DNA of 64,000 nucleotides, taken from assembly GCA_963665325.3 (NCBI GenBank), contig OZ224045.1:2112001-2176000 (forward strand), read 5' to 3'. The position numbers were made by a program, and so were the translations under genes. A model generated the notes under the pieces. It had not been told where the DNA came from and did no database searches. It saw only the letters and a list, made by a program, of their open reading frames with translations. Shown piece after piece: positions 1 through 33,479 of the stretch (the first letter of the stretch is position 1; every line of letters begins with the position of its first letter). Source of the DNA: Alphaproteobacteria bacterium. GTDB taxonomy: Bacteria; Pseudomonadota; Alphaproteobacteria; Bin95.

Positions 1-1986
1 GGCGATCGCCATCAGCTCCTCGGCGACGAACCCGACATCGCCCTGGCGGCGCCAGACTGCGGAGATCATTCGGGTGACGGCCGTAACCCAGGCGTGGTGC
101 CGGGCGTCCTTCGTGGCGATGAAGATCTCGAAGGGACGGTTGTTGCCGTCCCGGTCAATGGTGTGGTTCAGCGTCAGGTAGAAGGCGTGCTCGCTGCCGG
201 GCCAGGGGACCTTGCGGGTCTGGCCGTGGAGGACGGAAGGCCGGTCCATGACGGTAGGGGCCGGCTCTCCGGGGCTGTCGCCGTCCGCGACCAGGATCGC
301 GCCGGTGATGTCGTTCGGCCGGTAGGTGGTGCAGCCCTTGCAGCCGGACTCCCAGGCGAGGAGGTAGATGTCCCTGAAGGCCTCGAAGGATATGTCCCTC
401 GGGACGTTCACGGTCTTGGAAACAGCGCTGTCGATATGCGCCTGGGCGGCGGCCTGCATCCGGACATGGTCCTCGGGAGATATGGTGCCGGCGTCGACGA
501 AATAGTCCGGAGGCAGCTCGTCGCCGCGCAGTCGGCGCCAGAGCGCCATCGAAGCGGATTCGACCCGCTCTTCGGTATGGGTGTTGTCCGGCTGCAGGAC
601 CCGGCGCGTGTAGCTGTGCGCGAAGACGGGTTCGATGCCGCCCGAGACGTTGCCGGCAACCAGGGAGATCGTGCCGGTCGGCGCGATCGAGGTGAGGTGG
701 GAGTTCCGGAGTCCGTTGTTGACGATGAAATCCAGCGTTTGCGGGTCGAGCTGCCTGGTGGTCTTGGTTTCGAGGAAGTGCTCGGCGTCCCAGAGCGGAT
801 AGGGCTCGGTCTCTGCGGCGAGGACCGCGCTTGCGCGGTAGGCGGCCGTCTGCACCATGGAGACGAGGTCGCGGGTGCGCTCGGCGGCGAGCTCGGAGCC
901 GTAGCGGATTCCCAGATACGCGAGCGCGTCGGCCAGGCCCGTGATGCCGAGGCCGAGGCGCCGCTTCGAGAGCGCCTCCTCGCGCTGTTGCTCCAGCGGA
1001 TAGAAGGAGGCGTCAACGACGCGGTCCAGCATCCGCACGGCCGTGCCGACCGTCCAGGCAAGGTGATCCTCGTTGATGTGCGCATCGTCCTCAAAGGGCG
1101 ACCGCACGAAGGCGGCAAGGTTGATGGAGCCCAGCAGGCAGGAGCCCCAGGGCGGGAGGGGCTGCTCGCCGCAGGGGTTGGTTGCGTAAATGGTCTCGCA
1201 GTGCCGGAGATTGTTCGCGGCGTTGATCCTGTCGATGAAGATCACGCCCGGTTCCGCGCAGTCGTAGGTCGAGCGCATGATCCGGTCCCAGAGTTCGCGG
1301 GCCGAGACCGTGCGATGGACTTCGCCGTTGAACACGAGGTCGTGGCCACCGTCCCGCTTGACCGCGTCCATGAAGTCGTCGGTGACCAGAACCGAGAGGT
1401 TGAACATGCGCAGGCGCTTGGCGTCGCGCTTGGCTTCGATGAACTCCCCGATGTCGGGATGGTCGATGCGCATCGTGCCCATCATGGCGCCGCGGCGGCT
1501 GCCGGCGCTCATGATCGTCTTGCACATGCTGTCCCACATGTTCATGAACGAGAGCGGCCCGGATGCGTCGGCGCCGACGCGGTGGACCGGGGCGCCCTTC
1601 GGACGGAGCGTCGAGAAGTCATGGCCGATGCCGCCTCCGGCCTGCATGGTCGTGGCGGCGTCCTTCAGCGCGTCCATGATGCCGTCGAGGCTGTCGTCGA
1701 TCCGGCCGAGCACGAAGCAGTTGATGTTGGTGACGCGCCGGTCCGTCCCGGCGCCGGCGAGGATCCGGCCGGCCGGCAGGAACTTCCAGCCGGACATGGC
1801 GTCCATGAACATCTGCTTTTCGGTGTCGTTCCCGGCCAGGAAGCCGGCAACGCGCCGGCGGGTGTCGTCCATCGTCGCGTCGACCGGCGTACTGTCCCGC
1901 TCCTTGAAGCGGTATTTCATGTCCCAGATGGTGTGAGCGACGGGCGGGAGCAGCTCGTCGCTGTCGGGCAGTGTCGCGGCGTCCAT
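1..1986 (-). CDS. nrdJ: Class II (adenosylcobalamin-dependent) ribonucleotide reductase, runs off the left edge
   Basis: Own translation of the minus frame from ATG 1986 (GGAGG upstream): FLPAGRILAGAG, TNINCFV, GGGIGHDFSTLRP, ATNPCGEQPLPPWGSCLLGSINL, IAPTGTISL, GCKGCTTYRP, then a TSCPD-like tail. Missing from the ORF track because there is no stop in the window. Confidence 0.93.
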   Translation of the reverse strand, partial: MDAATLPDSDELLPPVAHTIWDMKYRFKERDSTPVDATMDDTRRRVAGFLAGNDTEKQMFMDAMSGWKFLPAGRILAGAGTDRRVTNINCFVLGRIDDSLDGIMDALKDAATTMQAGGGIGHDFSTLRPKGAPVHRVGADASGPLSFMNMWDSMCKTIMSAGSRRGAMMGTMRIDHPDIGEFIEAKRDAKRLRMFNLSVLVTDDFMDAVKRDGGHDLVFNGEVHRTVSARELWDRIMRSTYDCAEPGVIFIDRINAANNLRHCETIYATNPCGEQPLPPWGSCLLGSINLAAFVRSPFEDDAHINEDHLAWTVGTAVRMLDRVVDASFYPLEQQREEALSKRRLGLGITGLADALAYLGIRYGSELAAERTRDLVSMVQTAAYRASAVLAAETEPYPLWDAEHFLETKTTRQLDPQTLDFIVNNGLRNSHLTSIAPTGTISLVAGNVSGGIEPVFAHSYTRRVLQPDNTHTEERVESASMALWRRLRGDELPPDYFVDAGTISPEDHVRMQAAAQAHIDSAVSKTVNVPRDISFEAFRDIYLLAWESGCKGCTTYRPNDITGAILVADGDSPGEPAPTVMDRPSVLHGQTRKVPWPGSEHAFYLTLNHTIDRDGNNRPFEIFIATKDARHHAWVTAVTRMISAVWRRQGDVGFVAEELMAIA

Positions 1987-2057
1987 GATAGGCCTCCGTC
2001 TGTTCGGTCCGCCTCGAAGAGGCTTCCCTCAAACTCCTGGGTTCGACCGGTTTCCGG

Positions 2058-2294
2058 TCATGGAAGATCCGGGGGGGCGTCGTCCGCATAGAGACCCGCA
2101 CAGGCGGGGTTCGCTGCGGCCTGTATCTGCGCGGCGCAGCCGGAACAGAGATCCGCTTCGATCCACCGGCACGGCCCGTCGAGTGCGTCCGCGCAGGCGT
2201 TCCTGTCCGAGTGGCGGCACTCGCGGTAGACTTGGTCTTGCGGTTCCGGCGGCGGGAGTTCCCGGCAAAGCCTCTCGGACGGGGCGTCAGCCAT
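2058..2294 (-). CDS. Small Cys-rich hypothetical protein
   Basis: 78 aa with 7 Cys; 8-nt overlap with the upstream ORF; co-oriented directly before nrdJ. Confidence 0.5.
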   Translation of the reverse strand: MADAPSERLCRELPPPEPQDQVYRECRHSDRNACADALDGPCRWIEADLCSGCAAQIQAAANPACAGLYADDAPPDLP

Positions 2295-2628
2295 GGTCCA
2301 GAAGTCTCCTGACTTGCGATTTGGCGCGGCGCAGGTCTGCGCTGAAATATTTCGGTGCCTGCCGCGGGAGGTGCGTCCGCAACGGCGTGGTCGCCTGCCA
2401 TTCAGTTCTGCCCCGGCCCAGCTTGACGAGCTCGCCCAGGAGATTGCGGACGTGTCCTCCCCTTCCGGTCCGCTGGACCCAGAAGACGGGCACGCTGCGA
2501 CGATCCCATGTCGGAAGGAAACCGTCCGGCTCCGTGTGGAGCTTTCCGAAACGCACGGTCACAGCGAGAGTCCTCCCGGGCGTGTAGGGGGTTGCGTCCG
2601 TCGACTCGATTTCGGCCGTGTCAGCCAT
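2287..2628 (-). CDS. Hypothetical protein
   Basis: 113 aa; 8-nt overlaps with both neighbours suggest translational coupling. Confidence 0.55.
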   Translation of the reverse strand: MADTAEIESTDATPYTPGRTLAVTVRFGKLHTEPDGFLPTWDRRSVPVFWVQRTGRGGHVRNLLGELVKLGRGRTEWQATTPLRTHLPRQAPKYFSADLRRAKSQVRRLLDHG

Positions 2629-3094
2629 GGCGTGCCCGGTCGAGAAGACCGTCCAGGGTCGCGGGCCGAGCGCCGGCCTGCAGGCATTTCAGCAGTTGCT
2701 GGTGATGCTCCTGGGACATGCCAGCGATCCGGACGAGGTCCCTCTTGCGCTCTGCGATGCGTGTGTCGGCCAGCTCGGCCTGAAGGGCCGGGGGGATGCG
2801 TTCGGCGATACGCACGGTCACCTGGATGGATCGGGTCGTGCAGCCGAGAACGCGCGCAGCGAAATCGGTGAAGCCGTATCGCTCTGGGTCGGGAACGTCG
2901 GATTGACGGTCCTCGCGGTTGCTGCCGGCGCGGAAGGCGGCGGACTGGCGATCTCCACCATGAGCGGTCGCCGGGTAATGCCGTTCGTGACGGCGCTTCC
3001 CGCGGGCAAGCGCTTGCGCCTGTTCCAGGGCGGTGAGCCGGCCGAAACGTTCGGGAAAGTCCGGAGCGGTGAGGAGGGGGACTGCTTTGGCCAT
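2621..3094 (-). CDS. ParB-derived HTH protein lacking the N-terminal CTPase domain
   Basis: MAKAVP start; LTALEQAQALARGKRRHERHYPATAHGGDRQS and IAERIPPALQAELADTRIAERKRDLVRIAGM align by eye to the C-terminal half of the ParBs at 4197 and 5817. Confidence 0.75.
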   Translation of the reverse strand: MAKAVPLLTAPDFPERFGRLTALEQAQALARGKRRHERHYPATAHGGDRQSAAFRAGSNREDRQSDVPDPERYGFTDFAARVLGCTTRSIQVTVRIAERIPPALQAELADTRIAERKRDLVRIAGMSQEHHQQLLKCLQAGARPATLDGLLDRARHG

Positions 3095-3258
3095 ATGCCT
3101 GTCCTTCAGGCCGTCTTGCCTGGCAGCGAACCGCGAGGCGCCGGTTGTGTGCAGGGAGGGCAAGGTGGATTGCCGCGGCATCGCCGGTGGGCGGCGACCG
3201 TGACACGGGAGCCGCGCGCGTTTAGCATCGGGCAGCGTCGACGACCGGAGTGAACGGT

Positions 3259-3837
3259 ATGAGTGCGCAGGGAGCGTTGCGGCGGTCCAGGTCGGCCCGC
3301 AGGGCCAGCTACCGGGACGTGCTCGACGCGCCGGCGCACATGGTCGCGGAGATCGTCGAGGGCGCGCTGCACATGCAGCCGAGACCGGCCAGTCGGCACG
3401 CACTGGCGGGATCGTCGCTCGGAATCGAGATCGGAGGCCCGTTCCAGAAGGGCCGGGGCGGACCCGGCGGCTGGTGGATCGTCGACGAGCCCGAGCTCCA
3501 TTTCGGGGAGGACGTCGTTGTGCCGGACCTCGCCGGCTGGCGCCGGGAGCTGATGCCCGACTATCCGGACGTGCCTTATTTCACGCTGGCGCCGGACTGG
3601 GTGTGCGAGGTTCTTTCGCCTTCGACGCGGAAGTTCGACCTCGAGAAGAAGCGCCCGGTCTATGCGCGGGAGGGCGTCGGTCACCTCTGGTTCGTCGATC
3701 CCGGTGCGAGAACGCTGGAGGCGTTCGCCCTGGAGGATGGCTCCTGGAAGCCCGCCGGCGCGGCGCGGGACGATGACCCGGTGTCCTTTCCGCCCTTCAA
3801 GGCGGTGACCTTCCCGTTGGACGCTCTCTGGCCCTGA
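3259..3837 (+). CDS. Uma2/DUF820 family PD-(D/E)xK endonuclease-like protein
   Basis: EIVEGALHMQPRP, VVPDLAGWRR, APDWVCEVLSPST, YAREGVGHLWFVDP. Confidence 0.9.
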   Translation: MSAQGALRRSRSARRASYRDVLDAPAHMVAEIVEGALHMQPRPASRHALAGSSLGIEIGGPFQKGRGGPGGWWIVDEPELHFGEDVVVPDLAGWRRELMPDYPDVPYFTLAPDWVCEVLSPSTRKFDLEKKRPVYAREGVGHLWFVDPGARTLEAFALEDGSWKPAGAARDDDPVSFPPFKAVTFPLDALWP

Positions 3838-3960
3838 CACTGTGTGAACCGGCCCGGGTCGCGTTCGGCCCGGTTCGGTCATGGCCATGCAGCCGCAACG
3901 CCAGGCTACAGCGGTGCCGTATCTCCGTTTGGAATCCATGACAGGATTGAAAGCGGGAAA

Positions 3961-4080
3961 ATCAAAGTGGGGATAATTCACATTTGATCGGCCGTGAGGC
4001 CGATTTTCAAAGTGGGTATTGTACCAACTTTGATCGGTGCGGGGCCGGAAGACCAAAGTGGGTATTATACCAATTTTGAT
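3961..4080. repeat. Three near-palindromic 26-27 bp AT-rich repeats with 46-bp period (candidate parS/operator array)
   Basis: CAAAGTGGGGATAATTCACATTTGAT (3963-3988), CAAAGTGGGTATTGTACCAACTTTGAT (4008-4034), CAAAGTGGGTATTATACCAATTTTGAT (4054-4080); 19-bp GC-rich spacers. Confidence 0.85.
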
Positions 4081-4196
4081 TTTTTCGGCGCCCGGCGCAG
4101 GCCTGAAGGCCGCCTCGATCAAGGAGAGACAATAGCGCGACGCGGCGGTTGTTGCAAGGGGTGCATTCATCTGTTTGTCGGGCCTCGATAGGCTTG

Positions 4197-5102
4197 TCAG
4201 GAACTCGTGGGTTGTCCGGCGCCGCCCTGTCCGTTCATGAGCTCGAGCCAGGCGATGAACTCTTCTTGCTCTTCGGCGCTGGCGGCGATCCACAATTTCT
4301 GGAGGCGCTCCAGGGTGGTCTTTTCCGGGGAAGGTTCGGCACCGGCGGGTGGCTCCGGAGCTTCGTCCGGTGGCTGTTCCTGTTCTCGGCGGGGATAGAC
4401 GTCGGACAGGGCCTCGACTTCGTAGTTGGCGCTCTGGAGGTCCTGTAGAAGGGCGTCCTGTTCGTCTGAGTCCATGCCGGAAATGGTGAAGAGGTCGCCT
4501 TCGCGGTGCGCGATGGGTGTCATGGCGAGCTCCTCGCGCAGCTCGTCGGTGATCTTGTCTCCAATACGGAGCGCCCGGCGGATCGTGTAGGAGCTGAAGG
4601 GAGTGAACGATGCGGTTGCGGCGACGAAACCCTGCTGCGAGCCATCGGCGTTCTGGTCCTGGAAGTCGCTGCTTCTTCGGTCGCCTCCGCGCCGGGTCTC
4701 CGGATAGAGGCGCTCGTAGATCTGCTTGCGCCGAGAGAGGAACAGGCCGCGGTCGAGCGGGTTGAGCTCGGCGCGCATCAGGTTCTCGTCGATCTCGAGC
4801 AGGGCCAGCGTGTCCTCGTCGAGCAGGTCGAGAACGAAGGCCTCGATATGCGGCCAGGCCAGGAAGCGTGCGGCCTGGACGCGATGGGCGCCGGAGACGA
4901 GCGCGTAACGGTCGCCGTCCATGCGCACCTGGATCGGATACTGAAGCCCGTGCAGCTTCATGCTCTCGGCAAGGTATTGGACGGTTCCGCCGTTGACGGT
5001 CCGGAGGCGCTTGCCGAGATCGATCAGGTCCAGCTCCAGAAGGACCGTCTGGCGGGGTTGTTCCCGCACGATGACGGGGGCGGCGGCCGGAGCGTCCATC
5101 AT
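4197..5102 (-). CDS. parB: ParB family protein, full-length (copy 2)
   Basis: LAESMKLHGLQYPIQV, LVSGAHRVQAA (GxxRxxA), EIDENLMRAELNPLDR, YPETRRGGDRRS, HTH. Confidence 0.9.
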   Translation of the reverse strand: MMDAPAAAPVIVREQPRQTVLLELDLIDLGKRLRTVNGGTVQYLAESMKLHGLQYPIQVRMDGDRYALVSGAHRVQAARFLAWPHIEAFVLDLLDEDTLALLEIDENLMRAELNPLDRGLFLSRRKQIYERLYPETRRGGDRRSSDFQDQNADGSQQGFVAATASFTPFSSYTIRRALRIGDKITDELREELAMTPIAHREGDLFTISGMDSDEQDALLQDLQSANYEVEALSDVYPRREQEQPPDEAPEPPAGAEPSPEKTTLERLQKLWIAASAEEQEEFIAWLELMNGQGGAGQPTSS

Positions 5103-5281
5103 TCTTCTCCTTCAGGCCCGTCGGGTAGTGAGGGGATCGTTGGATGTGCGCTGTCCGGTTCGGGCCAGGCGTCCTGGAGGGGGTCGAAGATCTGCTTTCG
5201 TGCCGCGAGCAGGCGGGCGCGGTCGAGCGGAGCAAGTCCCGGTCGGCGCGGCGCACCATCCATGTCGGCCAGGGCGGTCAT
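5099..5281 (-). CDS. 60-aa mini-ParB fragment (single conserved helix)
   Basis: MTALADMDG...GLAPLDRARLLAARKQIFD matches ELNPLDRGLFLSRRKQIYE of ParB; ATGA overlaps at both ends. Confidence 0.6.
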   Translation of the reverse strand: MTALADMDGAPRRPGLAPLDRARLLAARKQIFDPLQDAWPEPDSAHPTIPSLPDGPEGEE

Positions 5282-5820
5282 GACCCTGCATCCGGGTCGG
5301 CAAGCCACTCGCGGAATTCGTCGCGCTCGGCCCGGGAGGAGTTGCGCCAAATGCGCTTGAAGCGGTCGAGATTGCTTGGGGTTGGCGCCGGCGCGTCCGG
5401 GTTCGCCATGAGAGCGGACAGGGTGGCAGGCGGCTGTGCCGCTTCTTGCAGGCATCGCAGTAGCTGCTGCTGGTCGTCAGCGTCCATGTCGGCGATTTGC
5501 TCCAGGTCTCGAGTTCGCCTGGCAATCGGTGTGTTTGCGAGAGCGTCCAGGAGCGAGATTTCGATCCGCGCTCCGATCCTGGCGGCACGCTGGATGGTGC
5601 GCATGGACCACGGTGTCGACGCGGCGGCAACTGCCGCGAATGAGGGTGGGCGTTCCGTGGCTGTGATTTCGCGTAGAAACTGAGGGATGCTGAGGTGGGC
5701 GCCTCGTTTGGTTTCGGGATAGCAGTGCTCGTAGACCTGTTTCTCCTTCGCCAGATAGCGTGCGCGGCCCAATGGAGTTAGCGAGGTGAAAACATCGTCG
5801 TTTTCGGGCGAAGTGCTCAT
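5278..5820 (-). CDS. ParB-derived HTH protein lacking the CTPase domain
   Basis: LTPLGRARYLAKEKQVYEHCYPETKRG, WSMRTIQRAARIG, TPIARRTRDLEQIADMDAD; ATGA overlaps. Confidence 0.8.
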   Translation of the reverse strand: MSTSPENDDVFTSLTPLGRARYLAKEKQVYEHCYPETKRGAHLSIPQFLREITATERPPSFAAVAAASTPWSMRTIQRAARIGARIEISLLDALANTPIARRTRDLEQIADMDADDQQQLLRCLQEAAQPPATLSALMANPDAPAPTPSNLDRFKRIWRNSSRAERDEFREWLADPDAGS

Positions 5821-6755
5821 TTCTGTTCATCCGCGTGCTGCTGCTGGAGCCAGGTGTAAAACCGCCGCTGATGGGATTGAGGCGTCTTGTCCCAGAGTTT
5901 CTGCAGACGCTCGAAGGGGTCGGGTCTGGATGAGGGCCTGTAAGGGTTCGTCGTAAGAGCGGAGAGAGAGAGCGGCTGTCGTTCCGCGTTCTGGATGCGT
6001 TGCAGCAGGTCCTGCTGCTTGTCGGCGTCCATGTCGGCGATGCGCTCCAGGTCTTTCCGCCGACGGCCAATTGGCGTGCCGGAAAGAGCCTTGCGAAGGT
6101 CGGGATCGAGCCGCTCCCCGATGCGGGTGTAGACGTGAATCGTGTGGGGGGACCACCGGGTTGAAGCCGCGGTATCTTCGACGAATGAAAGCGGACGGGC
6201 TTGGGGGGTGTCATGGCCCTCTTGATCAAGTTGTCGTTTCGACAGGTTGATATTATTTCGGTATTGCAAGCTCTTACGATCTCCCCCGTGCCTGGTTTCC
6301 GGATACAGGCGCTGGTAGATCTCCTTGCGCGTGGCGAAGAAATGGGCCCTGTCGACCGGATCGAGCTCGGCGCGGCAAAGGTTCTCGTCGACTTCGAGAA
6401 GTCTCGCCTCTTCCTCCTCCAGGTCATCGACCAGGAATGCCTCGATGTGCGTCCATCCGAGCTTGCTGGCTGCGGCGATGCGGTGGGCACCCGCGATCAG
6501 ACGGAACCGGCCGGGCTCGATGGTCCTGATCTGTATGGGGTAGATCTGCCCGCGGGCCTCCATGGATTCCGCGATGTGGTCGACGGCTGCCTCGTCAACC
6601 GACCGAAGCCGGTCCTCGACTTCGATCATGTCGATCGGGGTTGGCAGCGAACGGCGGTGGGGAACCGCATTCGGTAGGTTGGCTGCTTCCGGAGCTCTGG
6701 GTGCGTTGGATTTTCCCTGGGCCATCTTGGTTTTGAGCTTGGCAAGGCCGGTCAT
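5817..6755 (-). CDS. parB: ParB family protein, full-length (copy 1)
   Basis: IAESMEARGQIYPIQI, LIAGAHRIAAA, EVDENLCRAELDPVDRA, YPETRHGGDRKS; ATGA overlap with parA. Confidence 0.9.
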   Translation of the reverse strand: MTGLAKLKTKMAQGKSNAPRAPEAANLPNAVPHRRSLPTPIDMIEVEDRLRSVDEAAVDHIAESMEARGQIYPIQIRTIEPGRFRLIAGAHRIAAASKLGWTHIEAFLVDDLEEEEARLLEVDENLCRAELDPVDRAHFFATRKEIYQRLYPETRHGGDRKSLQYRNNINLSKRQLDQEGHDTPQARPLSFVEDTAASTRWSPHTIHVYTRIGERLDPDLRKALSGTPIGRRRKDLERIADMDADKQQDLLQRIQNAERQPLSLSALTTNPYRPSSRPDPFERLQKLWDKTPQSHQRRFYTWLQQQHADEQK

Positions 6756-7432
6756 CGGGAATCTCCGTTGGGTCGGGAAGCGTCCGAAACGACGGTGAGT
6801 GAGGGTTCCGGCCAGGCGAAGACGGCTGCAGCGAAGGCGCGCGCCTCGGCTGCGGCAGGGGATCCGGGCGTGAATTCGCTCACGCCAAGGCCGTAGGTGC
6901 AGGCGTGGGCGAAGGCGGACCGTTGACGAAGCATGGTCGGGAGGATCGGAATCTTCTCGTCCAACAGGAGTTGCCGGGCTATGCCGACCAGACGGTGACC
7001 GCGCGTCGGTGCTGCCGAGAAGACGATGACCGCTGACGTCTGCGCCATTCGGCAGACGTCGAGGGTCATCCGGATCGAGGCGAGGTCGAAAACCTGGGGC
7101 CGGCAGGGAATGACGACGAGGGTGGCGAGTTGGGCCGCGGCCAGCATTGACATGTCCGTGTGTCCGGGTGTGTCGAGGACGATGACCTCGTAGCCCCGCT
7201 GGGCCGCCCCGCCGATCTCACGGGGGAGCCGGCTCGGCTGGGTCGTGATGACGTCTGGGAAGGGCTTCTCGCGGAGATCGCTCCAGGTGCCGGAGGAGCC
7301 CTGCGGGTCGGTATCCACGATCATCGCCCTCTTTCCGGCCAGGCAGGCCTCGACCGCGAGGTTCGTGGAGATCGTCGTCTTGCCGGATCCGCCCTTCTGG
7401 GAGATGACGGCGTAGATGTCGGGTTCGGTCAT
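6752..7432 (-). CDS. parA: Short ParA family partition ATPase (no N-terminal HTH)
   Basis: Deviant Walker A QKGGSGKTT, VDTDPQGS, VLDTPG, VIPCRP. Confidence 0.92.
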   Translation of the reverse strand: MTEPDIYAVISQKGGSGKTTISTNLAVEACLAGKRAMIVDTDPQGSSGTWSDLREKPFPDVITTQPSRLPREIGGAAQRGYEVIVLDTPGHTDMSMLAAAQLATLVVIPCRPQVFDLASIRMTLDVCRMAQTSAVIVFSAAPTRGHRLVGIARQLLLDEKIPILPTMLRQRSAFAHACTYGLGVSEFTPGSPAAAEARAFAAAVFAWPEPSLTVVSDASRPNGDSR

Positions 7433-8340
7433 GGATTTACTCCGTTGGCTTGGTCGGCGCCGGCGGAACGGCGGCGCGAAGATGCAAGGAGGTCGGCAAC
7501 AATGCGGTCGAGGTGGATTTGGTCAGAGGAGGCGCGGTCGATGATTTGACGGACGAGAGTGGTGGGGTTCCTGCTGCTGCTGGTTGCATGGTTTGCGCTG
7601 GAGAGAATGACTGCGACGGCCGCGCCGTGGGCGCGAAGTAAGGTGCGGAGAAGTTGCCAGGTCTTGTCCGAAACCCCAGCGTCGAGACTGAGGTCATGGC
7701 GGGCTTCGCGGATAACCTCGAGCCAGCCTGCGTCGGGTGAAAGTGGCTGCCAATCAGGGTCGATCAGCCGGAGACAGGCATGGACATCTGCAAGGGAAGG
7801 CAAGTGATCGATCGCGTAGGGGGGAGCGGGGTGACGGAGATTGCGTAGCTCTGTGAGAAAGCATGCGCATGCTCTGTCGAGATGGATTTCCTTCGCGTTC
7901 TCGGAGTCTCCCAATGTGTCGGTGAAGTTGTGCCGGGGTTCCGAGGGGAAGGGGCGAATGAGGCCGATCGCATAGGAGAGTATGTCGGCGGCGCTCCCGG
8001 GGCGGTCGCCGATTTCTGTGAAGATGCGCTGGGGCTCGGCGTCGAAGGGACGAAGGAGATCCATTGCGGCGGATAGAATGGAGGCGGTGGCGGCCGCACG
8101 GTCCCCGATTCTGCCGGATACGCGTTGCCAGGCGGTTTGAGGGGAATAGGTAATGCCGAGCCAGGGTTCCGAGATTTCGATGTTGACTTGCTGGGCCCGG
8201 ACCACGAGTTCGTCCCACGTATTGGGAACCGGACCGGGAGCGGCGTAGAGGAAGAGCTCGACAAGGCCGAGGAGATCGCGGAGCACCGGGAACGGCGGCA
8301 GCGAAAACACGGGGCTTTCACGAGGGGGTTCGAGCGTCAT
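7429..8340 (-). CDS. Protein with two RepC C-terminal-like domains
   Basis: TWDELVVRA...LGI...AWQRVSGRIGDRAAATASIL and GWLEVIREARHDLSLDAGVSDKTWQLLRTLLRAHGAAVAVIL...NPTTLVRQIIDRASSDQIHL resemble the RepC C-terminus; AAGGA RBS; ATGA overlap with parA. Confidence 0.7.
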   Translation of the reverse strand: MTLEPPRESPVFSLPPFPVLRDLLGLVELFLYAAPGPVPNTWDELVVRAQQVNIEISEPWLGITYSPQTAWQRVSGRIGDRAAATASILSAAMDLLRPFDAEPQRIFTEIGDRPGSAADILSYAIGLIRPFPSEPRHNFTDTLGDSENAKEIHLDRACACFLTELRNLRHPAPPYAIDHLPSLADVHACLRLIDPDWQPLSPDAGWLEVIREARHDLSLDAGVSDKTWQLLRTLLRAHGAAVAVILSSANHATSSSRNPTTLVRQIIDRASSDQIHLDRIVADLLASSRRRSAGADQANGVNP

Positions 8341-8507
8341 GTGAGCTGTCCTTTCGGGCGGTCCGGTCGTGGGCTTGAGGCCGTTCTGTGTGTTGGAATG
8401 CTGTGGGCGCTGGCGTAGCCGGTGCTCTGGAAGCGCTTCCGGTCGATGGTGGCGGCCCGGGCCGGCGCCGAATTGAACGGCGCTGCCGCAGGCTGTAGGA
8501 TCGGCCC

Positions 8508-8708
8508 ATGGACAGGTACAGAATCGGTGGCGAGCCGCCCGCCATACCGGGATTCCCGGAGGACTGGCGCGACCGGATCAAGGCCGACCTCGCGGCCCAG
8601 CTTGAGGCCGGGGGCACGCTCTACAGCCTCCGCCCGGACGGTGCCTATGTCGCGCGCACCAGGGAGGGAGACCGGGTGCTCGGTTGGCCCGACTGGGAGT
8701 GCGACTGA
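8508..8708 (+). CDS. Small protein, putative antitoxin partner of the zeta-like toxin
   Basis: 66 aa, directly upstream of and co-oriented with the P-loop gene. Confidence 0.5.
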   Translation: MDRYRIGGEPPAIPGFPEDWRDRIKADLAAQLEAGGTLYSLRPDGAYVARTREGDRVLGWPDWECD

Positions 8709-8728
8709 CCCGGCAGGCGCCGTTCGCC

Positions 8729-9301
8729 ATGGCAACACTGCATGTGGTTGCCGGCCCGAACGGATGCGGCAAGTCCACCCTGACAAGAATGAGGGGCTTC
8801 GGCGATATCGAGGCCATCGACCCGGACGCCATTGAGCGCGATCAAGGGTCCGGAAACCCGGGCGCGGCCGCCCGCGAGGCGTTGCGCCGGCGGCGGGACG
8901 CACTTGCATCCGGCCGGTCCCACCTGGTGGAAACCACCCTTGCCGGCGCCGGCGTTCTCCGCCACATGGAGGTCGCGCGGAGGGCAGGCTACCGGATCGT
9001 CCTGCACTATGTGTCCGTCGCCTCGTCCGCCCAGGCGCTTGATCGTATCCGCAACCGGGTCGCGTTCGGCGGTCACGATATCCCGGAAGCGGACGTGCGG
9101 CGGCGATTTGCGCGCTCGCACGCCAATCTGCCGGCGGCGATGGTGCGGGCGGACCTGTCTCTGCTCTACGACAACGCCGATTCTGATCGGCCGCATCGGG
9201 CGTTTGCGATTCTGGGCGAGGGGACAAGGTGGATTGCCAATGCGGTTCCAGGTTGGGCGGTCGCGGCTCTCGCCCGGGCCGGGCCGCTACTACCGGGGTG
9301 A
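8729..9301 (+). CDS. Zeta-toxin/AAA_33-like P-loop kinase
   Basis: VVAGPNGCGKSTLT, IDPDAI, VETTLAG, RVAFGGHDIPEADVRRRFARSHANL, LYDN. Confidence 0.85.
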   Translation: MATLHVVAGPNGCGKSTLTRMRGFGDIEAIDPDAIERDQGSGNPGAAAREALRRRRDALASGRSHLVETTLAGAGVLRHMEVARRAGYRIVLHYVSVASSAQALDRIRNRVAFGGHDIPEADVRRRFARSHANLPAAMVRADLSLLYDNADSDRPHRAFAILGEGTRWIANAVPGWAVAALARAGPLLPG

Positions 9302-9375: not shown

Positions 9376-9627
9376 ATGAAACAGATCGCAGCCAGGGATG
9401 CCAAGAACCGCTTCGGGCAATTTCTCGATGCCGCCCAGAGCTCGCCCGTGAGCGTGACCAAAATGGGTCGCCCGGTCGGGGTAATGATGTCGATGCAGCA
9501 CTATGAACGGCTGCGCGGTGCCGCCTGGGAACGTTTGGCTGCGACGATGGATGCAATAGGCGAAGAAGCATCCGCGAACGGTTTGACGGAGGACGGACTC
9601 GAAGCGCTTCTGGCGGATGAGAGCTGA
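9376..9627 (+). CDS. Phd/YefM family antitoxin
   Basis: MKQIAARDAKNRFGQFLDAAQSSPVSVTKMGRPVGV; tandem GTGGCTAT repeat just upstream (possible operator). Confidence 0.9.
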   Translation: MKQIAARDAKNRFGQFLDAAQSSPVSVTKMGRPVGVMMSMQHYERLRGAAWERLAATMDAIGEEASANGLTEDGLEALLADES

Positions 9628-10039
9628 CCGCGTTGTTGCCGATACCAACGTCCTGATCAGCGCGGTGCTGCGCCCTCAGGGACCGCCGCGCGCAGCGATC
9701 GATGCGGTCAGGCTGGAGAACGGTGTTCTCCTGTTGTCTGAGGGGACCCCGATGGAGCTTCGGACGCGGATTTTGGGCCGGAAGTTCGATCGTTATGTCG
9801 GCCGGGATGTGCGGACAGCGTGGGTGGCCCAGCTTGAAGCGGTCTCGGAATGGATTCCGGTCTTTGGCGCAAGGCTCGGGTGTCGGGATCCGGCCGACGA
9901 CAAGCTGCTTGAGACGGCCCTGATGGGCGATGCCGGCTGCCTGATTACGGGTGACCGGGACCTCTTGGCGATGTCGCCGTTTCGCGGGATTCCTGTGCTG
10001 ACGCCGGCTGCTTTCCTGGACAGCGTGAGGAGCGGATAG
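9617..10039 (+). CDS. PIN-domain (VapC-like) toxin
   Basis: VVADTNVLISA, CRDPADDKLLETA, LITGDRDLL; overlaps the antitoxin. Confidence 0.9.
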   Translation: MRADRVVADTNVLISAVLRPQGPPRAAIDAVRLENGVLLLSEGTPMELRTRILGRKFDRYVGRDVRTAWVAQLEAVSEWIPVFGARLGCRDPADDKLLETALMGDAGCLITGDRDLLAMSPFRGIPVLTPAAFLDSVRSG

Positions 10040-10059: not shown

Positions 10060-12081
10060 TCACAAGCCAGTCTCCAAGCTGACGGAATCAGACACCTCGA
10101 ACGAGGTCCTGGACCGGTAGAGGAGCGAATTGTGGGGGAACAGTTCCGGGAGAGACCCGGGGCGTGTGGCTTCGTGGAACACGATCCTGGCGAAGTCCTT
10201 GCGGTTCCGTTCCTCTTCGAAGGCAGTTGCCGCGAGCGCGGCGGCGGCGGCCCGGCGGGGGCCGAGAATTCGGCAGGCGCGCTGCCAGTCGTTCTCCGAG
10301 AGACCCAGCCGCCCGGTGGCAAGGCCGTGTGCGGCCGCGGTCAGCTCGTCCCAGTCCAGTTCGGAGCCGTCGTCGATGCGCTCGCGTATCGAACGGGGGC
10401 CGTGCCGCTTCATGACTTCCGGGCCGGGCAGAAGTTCGGGAGCTGCGGGCTGGAATTCACCGTTCTCGAGCGCGGCGACGACGGCCAGGTCGATCTCGGC
10501 CTCGATCGCGGAGAGAGCCCGTGCATGGATGCCGTGAAACCAGTTCCTGTCGTATTGGCTCCTCAGCGCGGCGATCCGGTGGATGAGGCGGGGCTCCGGG
10601 GCGAGGTGCGGGCGCGGCGCGGCATACAGGACCGCGGCGGCCGCGCCTCTGGGCCCGACTTTGTCTTCGAGACGGGCCCAGGTCTCGTCGTCGATGTCGA
10701 GCGTCTGTCGGCCCAGCCGTCGGGCATTGTCGATCACCGAGTCCCAGCCGTGGCACTGGCCGGGAGCGGCGGAGACAGGCGCCCATTGCGTTTCGGGGAT
10801 GCGTCCCCGGATGTCGTGGATGTCGGGGACCGGCTTGAGAGGCTCTGTGAAGGCGATGGCTGCCGGAGAAGTGCCGAACCCGTCTCCAGCGGAGACGATC
10901 TCGTCGAGATCGAGTGTGCCAGCGCGGGCCAAGCGTATCGCCGACTCGAAACAGAGCTCGGCCAGGCCGTAATGCCGGGGACTCCAGTTATCCCAAGACA
11001 GAGCCAGCATGGCGACGACCGTGAAGGCGCGCTGTCCCAGCAGCTCCTTCGCCTCCGACAGGTCGGGCTTGTTGGCGAACCGGTACCGGTTCGGAAGATG
11101 GATGCGCACCATCCGGTCGTAGAGATTGTGCCAGGAGCACATGTCCGTGTCCGGGCCTGTCGGCGAGTGCGGGCAGCGGCGTCTGTACAGTTCGCGGGCC
11201 CGCTCCAGCGACGGGGTCCGGACGTCCAGGGTTCCGGAGTTCGGGAGGAGGGACAGCCGCGCGGTTGCCTGGACGAGCTTGCGGGCGGTCCGGTCGAGGG
11301 TGGCGGGCTTCTTGAGCGCGGCGGCGACCGTGCCGCGCAACGAGCCCGCAGGGTCGGAGACGAGCTCGAGCGACTGCTTGGCCATTGCGATGATGGCGGC
11401 CGCAGCCGCGCCGTGCCGCCCGAGCTGCGTCCGGGCCTGCCGCCAGTCCTCTCTCGGGACGAGCCGGTCGAAGAGGGCGATGCGGCGGGCCTGGTGGATG
11501 ACCTGGGGCCAGAGGGGCGCCTGGCGGTCCGGCCCCGGCGGATGGATATGGCGAAGGAGAGTCGCCAGGACATTCGGGTCGGGAAGGCCAGGCGCCGCGA
11601 CTGCGGGCTCCGTCTCGTACCGGACTGCCGCGAGCAGCTCTTCCGCCCGGGCCCGCAGGTCGCAATCGCCCCGCGCCAGTGCGCTCAGGGTCTCGTCGAG
11701 CGCAGTCGGTCCCGGCAGGGTTCCGAGGTCCAGAGATTCGGCGACATCGGCAAGAATGACGGCTGCTGCTGCGGCTTCCGGGCCGACCTTGCGGGCATGG
11801 GCCTTGAAATGATCCTCGGGCTCTTCGACGTAGAGGTGCGATGGGGTTATCGGACCGCTGTCCCCGTCATCGAAATGGTGGAAGGGACTGCCCGGATATC
11901 CGGCCCAGAGGAAAGGAAGAATGTGGGGCGCCAGGCGTGCGAGGTCCTCCGGGGTTTCGGGCGGGCCGCCCGGGAGCACCCGGGGAGCGGCCTGCGACCA
12001 GGGCAGCAGCTGGCGCAGGGTCTCCAGTGAGGGAAGGGGGACGGGCGGCCGGTTCCCGGCCGCGATGTCGGTGTCGGTCAT
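10060..12081 (-). CDS. 673-aa protein of about five tandem RepC C-terminal-like domains
   Basis: Five units with the pattern (L/V/T)P..W..(L/V)...A....W..A...(L/V)G..(G/R)AAAA: KVGPEAAAAAVIL, DWRQARTQLGRHGAAAAAII, EAKELLGQRAFTVVAML, TWARLEDKVGPRGAAAAVL, LGLSENDWQRACRILGPRRAAAAAL; ATGA overlap with the upstream gene. Confidence 0.7.
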   Translation of the reverse strand: MTDTDIAAGNRPPVPLPSLETLRQLLPWSQAAPRVLPGGPPETPEDLARLAPHILPFLWAGYPGSPFHHFDDGDSGPITPSHLYVEEPEDHFKAHARKVGPEAAAAAVILADVAESLDLGTLPGPTALDETLSALARGDCDLRARAEELLAAVRYETEPAVAAPGLPDPNVLATLLRHIHPPGPDRQAPLWPQVIHQARRIALFDRLVPREDWRQARTQLGRHGAAAAAIIAMAKQSLELVSDPAGSLRGTVAAALKKPATLDRTARKLVQATARLSLLPNSGTLDVRTPSLERARELYRRRCPHSPTGPDTDMCSWHNLYDRMVRIHLPNRYRFANKPDLSEAKELLGQRAFTVVAMLALSWDNWSPRHYGLAELCFESAIRLARAGTLDLDEIVSAGDGFGTSPAAIAFTEPLKPVPDIHDIRGRIPETQWAPVSAAPGQCHGWDSVIDNARRLGRQTLDIDDETWARLEDKVGPRGAAAAVLYAAPRPHLAPEPRLIHRIAALRSQYDRNWFHGIHARALSAIEAEIDLAVVAALENGEFQPAAPELLPGPEVMKRHGPRSIRERIDDGSELDWDELTAAAHGLATGRLGLSENDWQRACRILGPRRAAAAALAATAFEEERNRKDFARIVFHEATRPGSLPELFPHNSLLYRSRTSFEVSDSVSLETGL

Positions 12082-12905
12082 GGTTTTTCGCCCTTGAGCT
12101 CGCGGGACTTGATGAACGCGGTCGTGCCTTCATGTGTGGAAAGCTGCTTCAGGATCTTGTCGGGCAACTCTTCCGGGACCGGTCCGGGATGTTCGAGGAT
12201 TTCGTTTACCGTGATGCACACGGCGATCACCGCGCCGAACTCGTCCTGGCGACGGCAAAGGGTCTTCCAGACGCGCGGCGATATCCGGAACTCGGGCAGG
12301 GCCCGCTTCGTCGCCGCGATCACGGTCTTGCAGTCCAGCCTGCCGAGAGGCGGCATGAACCGCGCGAGAGGCACGGGCATGCGGCTGACCGCCAGGGCGG
12401 CCAGCCAATGATCGATATCGGCCGGCGCAAGCGCGTCGCGCTCGGCTTCGGTCATCGTCTCGATCTTTTCGACGAGCGCGTGCGCTTCCCTGATCGAGGG
12501 GGGCATGCGCTCCCGTCCCCGTATCTCCACGGGCGGGAGATCGGCGAAAGCTGCGGGAGATATTGCCTGGAGCGGGGTATCGGAGGATCCGGGATCGTTG
12601 TCGTTCCCGATCTCGACCGGCACGAAAGCTCCGATCTCTCTGAGCCGGTGCGCATATTCCAGAAACTCGGCCTCGGTCAGTCCCAGTGCCATCATGGCTT
12701 GCTGCGGTGTCACGGTTGATACGGGACGCCCGCCCGCGAGCCATTCCTTCTCGTCGATGCTGCCAATCCAGTATTCCAGCAGGCGGACCGGCCCTTCCGG
12801 ATCGCTGCCCAGCCCCGCGCGCGCCGCAACAGCGGGGAGTCGCAGAAGCCGGATAACCTCCCGGGGGTCGGTGTCGTTTGGCAAGCCGTTGGCGAGGTCA
12901 GGCAT
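12078..12905 (-). CDS. Shortened, divergent RepC paralogue (wHTH-like N-terminus plus C-terminal domain)
   Basis: VRLLEYWIGSIDEKEWLAGGRPVSTVTPQQAMMALGLTEAEF resembles the RepC wHTH; FRISPRVWKTLCRRQDEFGAVIAVCI resembles the RepC C-terminus; 8-nt overlap with the repC stop. Confidence 0.65.
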   Translation of the reverse strand: MPDLANGLPNDTDPREVIRLLRLPAVAARAGLGSDPEGPVRLLEYWIGSIDEKEWLAGGRPVSTVTPQQAMMALGLTEAEFLEYAHRLREIGAFVPVEIGNDNDPGSSDTPLQAISPAAFADLPPVEIRGRERMPPSIREAHALVEKIETMTEAERDALAPADIDHWLAALAVSRMPVPLARFMPPLGRLDCKTVIAATKRALPEFRISPRVWKTLCRRQDEFGAVIAVCITVNEILEHPGPVPEELPDKILKQLSTHEGTTAFIKSRELKGEKP

Positions 12906-14598
12906 GGTGCAGTTCCGTTTCCCTTTCAGCTCTGCGGCTGCTGTTTCCTCCGGTGCGGACCGTTGCTTGCTCTGCAAGGAGCTGCTCGTAGTGGCGCTCG
13001 ACTTCGTCGAGATACGGCCAGCAGCGATATCGGGAGACCAGCTCTCGCCAGGCCAGAAGAAGACCGCGCGGGTCTGCGGCGGTCCGGCAGATGGCTGCCA
13101 TGGTCGCCTGGTCGGCCCGCTGCCCGCCGACTCGCAGCGGTACGGGTCGAAGGCTGGGCTCCGGACCGGGGATGGAATGTTCTTCCTCTGTTGCTGGCGC
13201 GACCCGGTCGACGTGAAGCTGCTCGCTGCGCTCGATCGCGCCCCATAGCGAGCCCGCAAGGTTGAGAGTTCCCTTCCGGGCCCGCTCCGTCAGCTTCCGG
13301 AAATAGCCGCCGGCGCTGGTGTGGATCTCGCCGGCGTCGTCCCGCGAGGCGACGATCACGACCGCCATGGATGCCCAGGCAGGCGAGAGAGCCGTACAGG
13401 CGTCGCGCCAGGCTTCGGGCGATATCCCGAGTTCGCTGCGGGTCCGCGCGGCGGCCTCGAAGAACTCCTCTGCGGTCGGAGGCCGCCCGGCAGGCAGGAA
13501 ACGCGACTGGCGCGGGCTGAGGGAGTCCAGGATGAGCCACGCCGGCGGTCCTCCGGGGACCGGCGAGCGGCCGAGGCCGGAGGGACTACCGTCTCCCCTT
13601 TCCGGCGAAGGGCGGGCGGCAGGCGCTGTGCGCGGTTTCGGAGAAGGCTCTGTCGGTGGGTCTGCCGCTACAAGAGTACTCTCTTGGAATTGGTCTGTAA
13701 TTGAATTGGACCCTGTCGTCAGAGGGTACCCCAGGGTGAAAATTTCAGCATCTTTTTCGGATTCAGGCGGTGCGGAGACAGAGGGTTCGACCTCCTCCAC
13801 GATCGGCAGTTCGCCAGCATCCAGGCGCGGTTCGGTGAGTGTGCGAGCCTGGTGCTCAACGTCGAGGGCCTCGTCCCGAAGAGAACGAAGGATGGCGATG
13901 TTGGAGCGGTCGATACGCTTCGCGTCGGGGAGCGCCAGGACACGGGCGAGCAACGGCTGGAGTGCGCCTGCGGGCGCCTCGTCCCTGCGCAGCGCGGCCT
14001 GGAGAAGAATCCGAGTGTGGCAGCGGATGGTCGAAATCCTGTGGACCAGGCCCTCGCTCTCGATCTCCTCTTCCTCGGCCAGCAGCTGCGCGTCATCGAC
14101 TTCATCGGCGATGGCGTCCAGGGGGGCGAAGGTCACGCCATTGGCCCAGCGGATGCGGCCGTCCTGCTTGCTGCGCTTGCCGTCGCGGCGCCGGCTGGCC
14201 GTGTCGGTCCAGTAAAGGAAGCCGGCCCGAGCGAGATCCTTCTCGATGTTGGAGACGGTGCGCGGGCTGAGGTCCAGCTTCTCGGCAAGTTTCCGTTTGC
14301 TTATCCAGACGGTGGGCGGGCAGTCGCCCGGCTCGAAGTCGTTCCGGAAAAGCTTCTTGAACGACAGACGGAGATATTCGACATGGACGGGCTTCAAGCC
14401 GAAGCGCTCCCGGACGCGCCTGACCTCGAGGCGGGCGTGAAGCGCCCAATGGTCGAGGCCGTCCTCGCGGCCCGTCCAGGCCTCGGCGGCATCGCGTGCA
14501 CGGTCGAACTCGGGCTTGTGGAGTCGGCAGCCGGTGGAACCGGGGCCGCGCGGGGTGTTGCCGCTGCGAGAGCGGCCTGTACCGTCTTGTTCTGACAT
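12898..14598 (-). CDS. repC: repABC-type replication initiator RepC with an extended C-terminus
   Basis: DFEPGDCPPTVWISKRKLAEKLDLSPRTVSNIEKDLARAGF, DTASRRRDGKR, ANGVTFAPL, LGISPEAWRDAC, SAGGYFRKLTERARKGTLNL; start MSEQ chosen over 14781. Confidence 0.85.
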   Translation of the reverse strand: MSEQDGTGRSRSGNTPRGPGSTGCRLHKPEFDRARDAAEAWTGREDGLDHWALHARLEVRRVRERFGLKPVHVEYLRLSFKKLFRNDFEPGDCPPTVWISKRKLAEKLDLSPRTVSNIEKDLARAGFLYWTDTASRRRDGKRSKQDGRIRWANGVTFAPLDAIADEVDDAQLLAEEEEIESEGLVHRISTIRCHTRILLQAALRRDEAPAGALQPLLARVLALPDAKRIDRSNIAILRSLRDEALDVEHQARTLTEPRLDAGELPIVEEVEPSVSAPPESEKDAEIFTLGYPLTTGSNSITDQFQESTLVAADPPTEPSPKPRTAPAARPSPERGDGSPSGLGRSPVPGGPPAWLILDSLSPRQSRFLPAGRPPTAEEFFEAAARTRSELGISPEAWRDACTALSPAWASMAVVIVASRDDAGEIHTSAGGYFRKLTERARKGTLNLAGSLWGAIERSEQLHVDRVAPATEEEHSIPGPEPSLRPVPLRVGGQRADQATMAAICRTAADPRGLLLAWRELVSRYRCWPYLDEVERHYEQLLAEQATVRTGGNSSRRAERETELHHA

Positions 14599-14656
14599 GA
14601 TTTTCGACGCTCGGCGGCGTCCATGCCTCGATCCCCACTTTTTTCGCTTTCCCGGC

Positions 14657-14685
14657 TTGACTGGGCAGACCGGGGGGGTTACCTT
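14657..14685 (+). promoter_or_regulatory. Sigma70-like promoter antisense to the repC leader
   Basis: TTGACT (14657-62), 17-bp spacer, TACCTT (14680-85). Confidence 0.55.
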
Positions 14686-14691
14686 CCGCGC

Positions 14692-14800
14692 TTGAGGCGC
14701 TTCGGAAGGTCCTTGATTGTCGTGTGGGGACTGAAGCTTCAGTCCGATTTTCGGGCTAAGATCGGGGGGCGGAAAGGGCATTCCGCTCCCCGCTTTCTTT
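14692..14800 (+). ncRNA. Putative counter-transcribed RNA (ctRNA) controlling repC
   Basis: Lies downstream of the promoter; perfect 18-bp palindrome GGACTGAAGCTTCAGTCC (14728-45); terminator-like GGGGGGCGGAA-AGGGCA-TTCCGCTCCCC followed by GCTTTCTTT. Confidence 0.5.
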
Positions 14801-15123
14801 AACCGCTTGACCGCTGAGGGCTAACCGAGCACAATTCTCCGGCTCCTAAGGTTAGAAGCCTGCCGGCTGTGGTGGCTAAGACAGGAGCATGTGCCAGCCC
14901 GGCGGGATCGCGGCGCCATCTTCGGGCTCCAGGTCCTGTCGCCCGAGCGTCTTTTGGAACAACAGCACGGGGGCTGCCGCCGCTACATCGCTGTCGGTCT
15001 GGCGGGTGCCGATATGGCTGCGGATATCGGCAAGATCGTCGGGCATGGGTCGCGTTTCCCCCTTGTCTCGTGTCTCGTCGCGACTCTATCACAGCGATTG
15101 CAGCGCGAGGAAAGCGCCAGCGG

Positions 15124-29607: not shown

Positions 29608-29611
29608 AGGC

Positions 29612-33325: not shown

Positions 33326-33479
33326 AAGGTGCGCTTCATAACACGAGCGGGCGACAGGCGGGAGCGTCGATGCGCGCCCGGACGGGACAGTTGCTTGTCT
33401 CGCGGGAGCAGGCGTAAAGTCGCCGAGGCTGAAGCAGGGTCCGGGGGAACCGGACTTCACATCTGGGAGGATGCCTACC

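Follow-up and report, generated by a model that had tools for sequence, protein, structure and literature searches.

Separately encoded ParB paralogues without an N-terminal domain in a ParA-ParB operon of an alphaproteobacterial RepC-type replicon

The partition locus described here lies in a high-GC stretch of 64 kb (hereafter the window) from Alphaproteobacteria bacterium, assembly GCA_963665325.3, contig OZ224045.1, positions 2,112,001 to 2,176,000; coordinates below are those of the window unless a related locus is named. It encodes one ParA and five ParB-related proteins, two of full length (ParB1 and ParB2) and three short forms without the N-terminal domain, which we call S180, S157 and P60 after their lengths. 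The three short genes are genuine, some of them well conserved, and their arrangement is unusual; their function we infer, and there are evident signs of decay in part of the array. The reading that we favour, although we rate it as falling a little short of probable, is that the array arose by duplication of parB in place, that S157 and S180 may be static DNA binders unable to form a clamp, and that P60 may be a remnant retained for translational coupling.

All genes of the array lie on the minus strand, and the one parA and five parB-related open reading frames (ORFs) reported in an earlier note on this DNA were all found where it had placed them. They are arranged in the order of a RepC_C-like gene (303 amino acids, aa), parA (6752-7432, 226 aa), parB1 (5817-6755, 312 aa), the gene for S180 (5278-5820, 180 aa), that for P60 (5099-5281, 60 aa) and parB2 (4197-5102, 301 aa). 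Read along the strand, five consecutive ATGA start/stop overlaps connect RepC_C-like with ParA, ParA with ParB1, ParB1 with S180, S180 with P60 and P60 with ParB2, and the ParB-derived genes of this chain are separated by neither frameshift debris nor intergenic DNA. The gene for S157 (2621-3094, minus strand, 157 aa) stands outside the chain, 1.1 kb past parB2 and beyond an opposite-strand Uma2 gene.

ParB1 and ParB2 are related to each other (BLASTP E 3e-67, 40% identity) and are the only two of the five proteins that pass the cutoff of Pfam ParB_N (PF02195, 26.3 bits), with 34.2 and 28.5 bits, respectively; S180, S157 and P60 gave no match. Against TIGR00180 parB_part (cutoff 58.45), ParB1 scored above the cutoff (60.0 bits) and ParB2 below it (49.9 bits). 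The N-domain of ParB1 matched Noc and ParB structures at 1.7e-13, and the profile phrog_3264 ('ParB-like partition protein', 337 positions) spans both proteins almost end to end (3.4e-54 and 1.2e-48). ParB1 consists of a Lys-rich N-terminal extension, the motifs GAHRIAA and ENLCR, a helix-turn-helix (HTH) domain and a C-terminal W..F..WL motif. ParB2 carries GAHRVQA and ENLMR and lacks the extension of about 30 residues. A pattern search detected GAHRxxA together with ENLxR in these two proteins only, and no ENLxR in S180, S157 or P60. The description of ParB1 and ParB2 as ParBs of 312 and 301 aa with intact GxxRxxA and ENLxR motifs is therefore literally correct, but their box II reads GAHR and not the canonical GERR, as is seen in an alignment to Noc structures that pairs 'agahr' with 'agerr'. 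In a 20-member family alignment, the G, H and R of box II are invariant, the canonical Glu being replaced by Ala and the first Arg by His. At box I (C-motif QPR) the aligned stretch, with its register read by eye, is RLR, so that the Gln is lost; R49 and R51 are nearly invariant. Judged by profile and motifs, the duplicated ParB is a member of a divergent, mobile-element-type family resembling phrog_3264 with GAHR as box II.

The CTPase activity of ParB1 and ParB2 is only putative, because box II is GAHR and not GERR. We take the Glu of GERR to correspond to E102 of Caulobacter ParB. The E102A variant of that protein is described in PMC8367383 as binding CTP without hydrolysis, with its clamp locked, and according to PMC12704722 the nucleoside triphosphate specificity cannot be predicted from sequence. 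A pattern search for the ParA-binding motif (L/F/I)G(K/R)G(L/F/I) found none in any of the five ParB-related proteins; PMC12704722, which gives the LG-R/K-GL definition, also states that plasmid ParBs can have divergent ParA-binding motifs. A role of ParB1 as the partner of ParA via its N-terminal peptide was considered and set aside as at best a weak inference, the canonical motif being missing from both ParBs. In the family alignment, full and short forms alike carry a nearly invariant YPET..HGGDR(K/R)S stretch between the helix that follows box III (ENLxR) and the HTH; in S157 (residues 44-65), disorder is predicted for this stretch.

The two longer short forms begin at this post-box-III helix. 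Residues 14-173 of S180 align with residues 131-303 of ParB1 (BLASTP E 2e-39, 39% identity) and comprise the helix, the linker, the HTH and the C-terminal motif. Residues 20-140 of S157 align with residues 113-224 of ParB2 (E 9e-17, 35% identity); this protein comprises the helix, the HGGDR linker and the HTH domain and lacks the C-terminal motif in addition to the N-domain. The profile phrog_3264 matches both from position 144 onwards (144-326 in S180, 1.5e-8; 144-279 in S157, 8e-7), which agrees with the earlier proposal that the 180-aa and 157-aa proteins start at the helix after ENLxR and keep the HTH. Clamp closure during ParB spreading needs a CTP-driven self-dimerisation of the N-domain, as described in PMC8367383. 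Since S180 and S157, like P60, are wholly without the N-terminal fold, they would by this mechanism be unable to close an N-gate or slide.

Both proteins belong to conserved families. The S157 family comprises 36 clusters (54-92% identity), of which 30 have a length of 156-166 aa, and an alignment of 31 sequences contains 38 invariant columns across the N-terminal helix and the HTH domain. The AlphaFold2 model based on these 31 sequences is all-helical apart from the disordered linker, with a predicted local distance difference test (pLDDT) score of 80.0 and the recognition helix at H87-99. In a Foldseek comparison with the PDB, nine of the first ten hits were ParB-family DNA-binding domains (ParB, Noc, SopB, KorB), including the Caulobacter ParB-parS structure 6t1f (probability 0.99; hits at E 0.2-1.3 and TM 0.42-0.44). 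A search for homologues of S180 returned 16 hits, comprising 12 short homologue clusters and four distant full-length ParB_N proteins (36-38% identity in three, 34% in the fourth). The length of S180 is held at 180-182 aa in eight clusters (one of them 182 aa) with 59-99% identity; in addition, there is a 199-aa form at 52% identity as well as four clusters of 132 aa. The invariant residues of this family are concentrated in the part that runs from the recognition helix to the end of the C-terminal motif, a conserved two-helix element common to ParB1, ParB2 and S180 for which dimerisation is only predicted. The AlphaFold2 model of S180 (13-sequence alignment, pLDDT 74.7) places the recognition helix at H73-85 and ends with two helices, and Foldseek related it to the SopB and KorB DNA-binding domains with a probability of 0.25-0.51 and no E-value at or below 0.001. 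The predicted ParB-type DNA-binding fold of S157 and S180 is thus supported mainly by homology, which is firm for the HTH part of ParB1, ParB2 and phrog_3264, and only moderately by structure comparison.

P60 is of a different kind. Its residues 3-42 align with residues 100-136 of ParB2 (BLASTP E 1e-6, 43% identity), phrog_3264 does not match it, and its only content is a degenerate box III (ADMDGAPRR aligned with LEIDENLMR) and the following helix. The earlier description of this peptide as the helix after ENLxR and nothing else needs amendment accordingly: the helix is kept and HTH and N-domain are gone, but P60 also spans the degenerate box and starts about eight residues ahead of the helix. 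Its length is 60-61 aa in four clusters (58-100% identity), with conservation in the first ~30 residues and the last six (PEGEE). The last codons (GGAGAAGAA, PEGEE) are located at the expected place of the ribosome-binding site for parB2.

A scan of genome contigs yielded 157 pattern matches, two of which were confirmed as related loci (L001 and L002), both from metagenome-assembled genomes of Alphaproteobacteria. The two share one layout, with the order RepC-like, ParA, ParB1 (318 or 327 aa), a 132-aa protein (S132), a 92-aa counterpart of P60 (P92), ParB2 (304 aa), repeats, S157 (160 aa) and a 91-aa gene, and the overlaps at the junctions of the ParB array are retained with 4 nucleotides (nt) or 1 nt. 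An absence of the short ORFs from related elements, which the earlier note had regarded as speaking against its view, was not observed, as S157 and S180 are conserved families and the layout recurs in both fetched loci. Nevertheless, the copies are not identical in structure. S132, the counterpart of S180, joins a P60-type N-terminus to the C-terminal two thirds of S180, so that most of the HTH is missing; in four clusters its C-terminal half is intact although the HTH is gone. Moreover, ParB1 of L001 (6174-7130) and of L002 (7392-8375) carries the C-terminal W..F..WL motif twice, the second copy being S180-like. Going by these sequence patterns, the doubled tail of ParB1 and the chimeric S132 point to recombination among tandem paralogues.

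An alignment and a tree, which the earlier note had suggested, separated three clades. The tree was built with a quick method from 59 hand-picked rows and 188 columns: the proteins of the window, L001 and L002, 10 of the 12 S180-family hits (P0001 and P0011 were omitted), 9 of the 36 S157-family hits, 22 full-length representatives and six short ones. ParB2 (support value 100 by this quick method), S157 (99) and ParB1 together with S180 (96) were recovered, the S180 and S132 rows (98) being nested beside ParB1. Two outlying short forms placed beside S157 gave rise to long-branch warnings. S180 is hence a truncated tandem duplicate of the ParB1 lineage from which the N-terminal nucleotide-binding fold has been lost entirely. 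S157, in contrast, represents a lineage of its own, an older one, of ParB paralogues without the N-domain.

Selection was estimated as the ratio of nonsynonymous to synonymous substitution (dN/dS; Nei-Gojobori) among the three loci, that is, the window, L001 and L002. The values were 0.13-0.22 for ParA, 0.28-0.30 for ParB1, 0.04-0.27 for ParB2 and 0.09-0.27 for S157; S180/S132 reached 0.43-0.52 and P60/P92 0.35-0.96. Between L001 and L002, substitutions at the three codon positions were 4/7/6 in P92 and 4/5/9 in S132 compared to 9/8/58 in ParA, ParB2 and S157 pooled (Fisher p of 0.0023 for P92 and 0.037 for S132). S157 is as constrained as the full ParBs and evolves under purifying selection, and S132 is under relaxed constraint. 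P92, in which a third-codon bias is absent, shows no sign of constraint at the protein level, and P60 behaves as weakly constrained or unconstrained in the lineage that can be compared at the DNA level.

Short forms of this kind also occur elsewhere in the family. A profile of the shared region, run against the whole library, matched 5915 representatives at E <= 0.001 and 3226 at E <= 1e-10. Among the 150 matches listed, 18 start within the first 35 residues, and 15 of these 18 were inspected. Five of them (147-205 aa) begin at or after the post-box-III helix and contain no ENLxR, one is a chain of four modules without the N-domain, and nine hold ENLxR at the start, three of which do not begin with M and may be fragments. 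Forms without the N-domain thus recur in the family as a minority. In P0058 (310 aa) and P0109 (302 aa), two to four tandem modules make up a single polypeptide, each module with the helix, the HGG linker and the HTH; as far as can be read from these sequences, the module has multiplied inside one gene elsewhere, too. A lookup of S157 in the ESM Atlas led to unnamed clusters of 168-214 aa, and 11 of the 30 hits were clusters with some HTH_ParB members (33% in the listed example). This suggests that short ParB-HTH-like proteins may be widespread but unnamed.

Directly after parB2 lies a cluster of three iterated repeats with a spacing of 45-46 nt (3953-4083; repeat families D3 and D6), a candidate centromere or operator. 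It contains two good palindromes of 25 bp (CAAAGTnGGTAnnnTACCnACTTTG) and one degenerate copy. The palindrome pattern has two matches in the window compared to none in 100 shuffles, and five of the seven half-site matches in the window fall within 3953-4083. Two copies of the palindrome, spaced by 46 nt, are found at the same place after parB2 in both L001 and L002. Repeated or palindromic sites were found neither upstream of S157, nor upstream of the operon, nor around repC, and our search for a canonical parS revealed none within three mismatches of the consensus used.

S157 is followed directly by a gene for a protein of 91 aa (2287-2562, minus strand), which is possibly co-transcribed with it. 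Substitutions in this gene were 4/1/22 and 3/1/23 by codon position in comparison to L001 and L002, and its product is ~96% identical to the copies in these loci, whereas S157 is only ~60% identical. By this codon-position pattern the ORF encodes a real, strongly constrained small protein, and an interpretation as a non-coding RNA leader was ruled out by the same bias. The 113-aa ORF listed at this place probably starts too early. Pfam, PHROG and the Atlas yielded no name for the 91-aa protein.

In the reading that we favour, selection would have retained S157, and in the lineage of the window also S180, as HTH proteins of the ParB type that bind DNA statically at specific sites and can neither bind nucleotide nor close into a sliding clamp. 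Their most likely job would be the occupancy of an operator or centromere, either in the autoregulation of the par and rep genes or as accessory or boundary proteins of the repeat cluster, tasks for which the small ParA of 226 aa lacks a DNA-binding domain. P60, S132 and P92 would be decaying remnants, with frames that may persist mainly via translational coupling, in the case of P60 together with the likely ribosome-binding site, feeding parB2. As P60 resembles a weakly constrained or unconstrained peptide and S180 is replaced by the HTH-poor S132 in the sister lineage, at least part of the array is decaying and does not constitute a designed set of modulators. The earlier suggestion that the short forms act as roadblocks, repressors or heterodimeric modulators holds insofar as S157 and S180 are conserved, non-chance proteins unable to clamp, for which each of the three would be a candidate role, but it does not extend to the decaying P60 type. 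Different DNA specificities are likewise suggested at most: all four recognition-helix strings are present and lie in predicted helices, but TIQRAARIG of S180 is similar to TIRRALRIG of ParB2, and there is a single cluster of sites in the window.

Several points weigh against this interpretation. There are four DNA-binding paralogues and a binding site is assigned to none of them, and a conserved palindrome is found neither upstream of S157 nor upstream of the operon. The Foldseek E-values are weak, with none at or below 0.001 for S157 or S180, and a sequence profile of the shared region detected no solved structure in the PDB, its lone hit (E 0.26) being unrelated. The selection estimates come from three loci, S180 proper is judged by conservation at the protein level, and its dN/dS was taken against the rearranged S132 and may overstate relaxation. 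In addition, the C-terminal half of S132 without the HTH fits a protein-protein role better than DNA binding, and the N-terminal helix of P60 is conserved in four clusters, which would be needless for a pure spacer.

The most serious competitor, which we nonetheless consider rather unlikely, is that the short forms are heterodimeric modulators. S180, and possibly S132, would pair with ParB1 via the C-terminal motif, giving half-clamps that load but never close or slide; S180, S157 and P60 might also offer their post-box-III helix to the N-gate and limit spreading or turnover. In PMC5731820, a dominant-negative effect, seen in vitro as well as in vivo, is described for the free C-terminal domain of B. 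subtilis ParB. S180 descends from the ParB1 lineage and retains the family's C-terminal motif, in which W288 and F299 are nearly invariant. The extra S180-like copy of this motif in ParB1 of L001 and L002 indicates that modules recombine, S132 has retained its C-terminal half although its HTH is lost, and the post-box-III helix is where every short form begins. Furthermore, the box II Glu, the loss of which locks the Caulobacter clamp, is absent here, so that a non-hydrolytic limit on the clamp could be useful. However, the pairing is a prediction from sequence, and S157, the best-conserved short form, has no C-terminal motif. Paralogous ParBs usually avoid cross-dimerisation, and S132 is under relaxed constraint. 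A complex prediction for full-length ParB1 with S180 scored 0.23 against a mark of 0.32, was run without controls and counts neither way. A more far-reaching version of this idea, to which we give little credence, is that clamps poor in hydrolysis (GAHR) might be restrained by headless paralogues and not by nucleotide turnover: S180, S132 and P60 would enter the dimers of ParB1 or ParB2 by subunit exchange or cap the N-gate helix, which would leave half-clamps unable to close, and S157 would form a fixed boundary at the centromere. If true, this would be a genetically encoded, paralogue-based mechanism of clamp control.

It is also conceivable, if doubtful, that S157 is a transcription factor for the 91-aa gene and the gene for a class II ribonucleotide reductase (nrdJ) and is found near the par operon by descent only. 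The three genes are co-directional, the 91-aa gene follows S157 in all three loci, and the opposite-strand Uma2 gene separates S157 from parB2 both in the window and in L002. With 36 clusters, the S157 family is also wider than the S180 family (12). On the other hand, S157 of L001 comes directly after the repeat cluster and parB2, inserted genes part nrdJ from the pair of S157 and 91-aa gene in the same locus, and no repeated or palindromic site lies upstream of S157. Contigs of sizes 31534, 24315 and 2975 appear in the lists of both S157 and S180, which suggests that the two families share contigs. We give the least weight to the view that none of the three short ORFs is functional and that they are debris left behind when parB copies were duplicated in tandem and recombined with each other. 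The mosaic, variable layout (180 versus 132 aa, 60 versus 92 aa), the chimeric tails of ParB1, the missing third-position bias of P92 and the relaxed S132 are in line with it, as is the finding that 9 of the 15 inspected short family hits look like partial or fragmentary N-domain forms. This is opposed by the dN/dS of 0.09-0.27 and the 36 conserved clusters of S157, by the length of S180 being held in eight clusters down to 59% identity, and by the clean start/stop overlap at every junction, without frameshifts or intergenic junk. As an explanation, debris is tenable for P60, P92 and S132 only.

ParA is a small Walker-type partition ATPase that matches NF041546 ParA_partition (4.6e-48) with 163.5 bits, below the 180-bit cutoff, and passes the Pfam families AAA_31 (52.8 bits, cutoff 27) and CbiA (44.5 bits, cutoff 25.4). 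A RepC replication initiator of 627 aa is encoded at 12898-14781 (minus strand; Pfam RP-C 3.6e-15 and RP-C_C 2.1e-20, both above the cutoffs), which identifies this region as the core for replication and partition of a RepC-type replicon. Two further RepC C-terminal-like proteins exist besides the complete RepC: the 303-aa protein at the head of the par chain (7429-8340, minus strand; RP-C_C 3.4e-7, 30.9 bits, below the 32.6-bit cutoff) and a 673-aa protein (10060-12081, minus strand) with two RP-C_C-matching stretches. Typical plasmid-maintenance cargo separates the RepC-like genes from the par operon, namely a zeta-toxin/AAA_33-like kinase gene (8684-9301, plus strand) and a pair of Phd antitoxin and PIN toxin genes (9400-10039, plus strand). 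The non-coding stretch upstream of repC (14782-15123) shares many exact 12-mers in the same order with L002 (3415-3660) and with L001, where the corresponding stretch also lies upstream of a RepC-like gene; this sequence sharing marks it as a conserved control or origin region.

The same replicon carries lpxK, a Kdo transferase gene and a gene for an MsbA-like ABC exporter within 28648-33481, and with such housekeeping genes aboard a RepC-type replicon it is therefore chromid-like. A tyrosine integrase gene and an IS21 pair (IstA- and IstB-like) are located within 50364-55643, and nrdJ extends past the start of the window. The Uma2-family endonuclease gene of the window (3250-3837, plus strand; Pfam Uma2 7.8e-22) is flanked by parB2 and S157, as is that of L002 (10421-10999, minus strand), whereas in L001 (10131-10709, minus strand) it is found on the far side of S157 and the 91-aa gene. 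The shift reflects a local rearrangement beside the repeat cluster, and with its position differing in L001 the gene is probably a passenger outside the partition system. Among plasmids, neither a megablast search with 2500-7700 nor a tblastn search with S180 gave any match, and tblastn with ParB2 returned only two weak records (31-35% identity). An Rfam scan of 1800-8800 revealed nothing at E up to 0.1, and the signal of a promoter and terminator scan was no better than that of shuffled sequences.

There is current interest in ParB clamps and in small proteins, such as KorA and TrbA, by which these clamps are locked or stopped. The locus described here adds natural paralogues without the N-domain beside two full ParBs, a ParA and repeats, with one of the paralogues under the same degree of constraint as the full-length forms. 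Together, the six proteins and the 130-bp site make up a compact, testable set for the question whether static binders derived from ParB regulate a clamp, delimit it or poison it. The array also displays stages of gene birth and decay, namely a full copy, a copy without the N-domain, one lacking the HTH as well, and a helix-only piece. In the literature that we searched, no description of a natural ParB paralogue without the N-domain within a par operon was found.

The array resembles canonical ParABS systems (Spo0J/ParB, Noc) in its single Walker ParA followed by ParB, in ParB_N, GxxR, ENLxR, HTH and C-terminal motif, and in a palindromic repeated site that adjoins the genes. It differs from them by GAHR at box II and RLR at box I, by the missing LG-R/K-GL motif, by the lack of a canonical parS within three mismatches, by the conserved YPET-HGGDR linker between box III and the HTH, and above all by the combination of two full copies with three separately encoded ones that lack the N-domain. 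The phage and plasmid family phrog_3264 is matched near end to end by ParB1 and ParB2 and from position 144 by S180 and S157. Its model, however, describes full-length proteins, whereas the forms without the N-domain are stand-alone genes here, and their setting is a RepC replicon with housekeeping genes and no phage. The repABC systems of Alphaproteobacteria also place RepC beside ParA- and ParB-like genes on a secondary replicon. In contrast to these, the proteins found here score only 49.1 bits with TIGR03453 (RepA; 348) and 50.1 bits with TIGR03454 (RepB; 201.5), repC is situated 5.5 kb upstream and not downstream within one operon, and there are additional RepC_C-like genes. The locus thus falls outside the classical repABC type of operon.

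Functionally, the closest analogue is KorB of plasmid RK2 with its clamp-locking partners KorA and TrbA. KorB is described as a ParB-family protein acting in partition and as a regulator, the sliding of which is halted by small DNA-binding partners encoded nearby, and structures of the KorB DNA-binding domain were among the Foldseek matches of both S157 and S180. To our knowledge, KorA and TrbA are not derived from ParB, whereas the candidate partners in the present array are truncated ParB paralogues. We know of effects of an N-domain removal from ParB only through laboratory truncations. One of these is the engineered C-terminal domain of B. subtilis ParB, a fragment without the N-domain that is described in PMC5731820 as disturbing networks of full-length ParB in a dominant-negative manner. 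Such truncations are laboratory constructs, whereas the forms reported here are natural, separately encoded and conserved.

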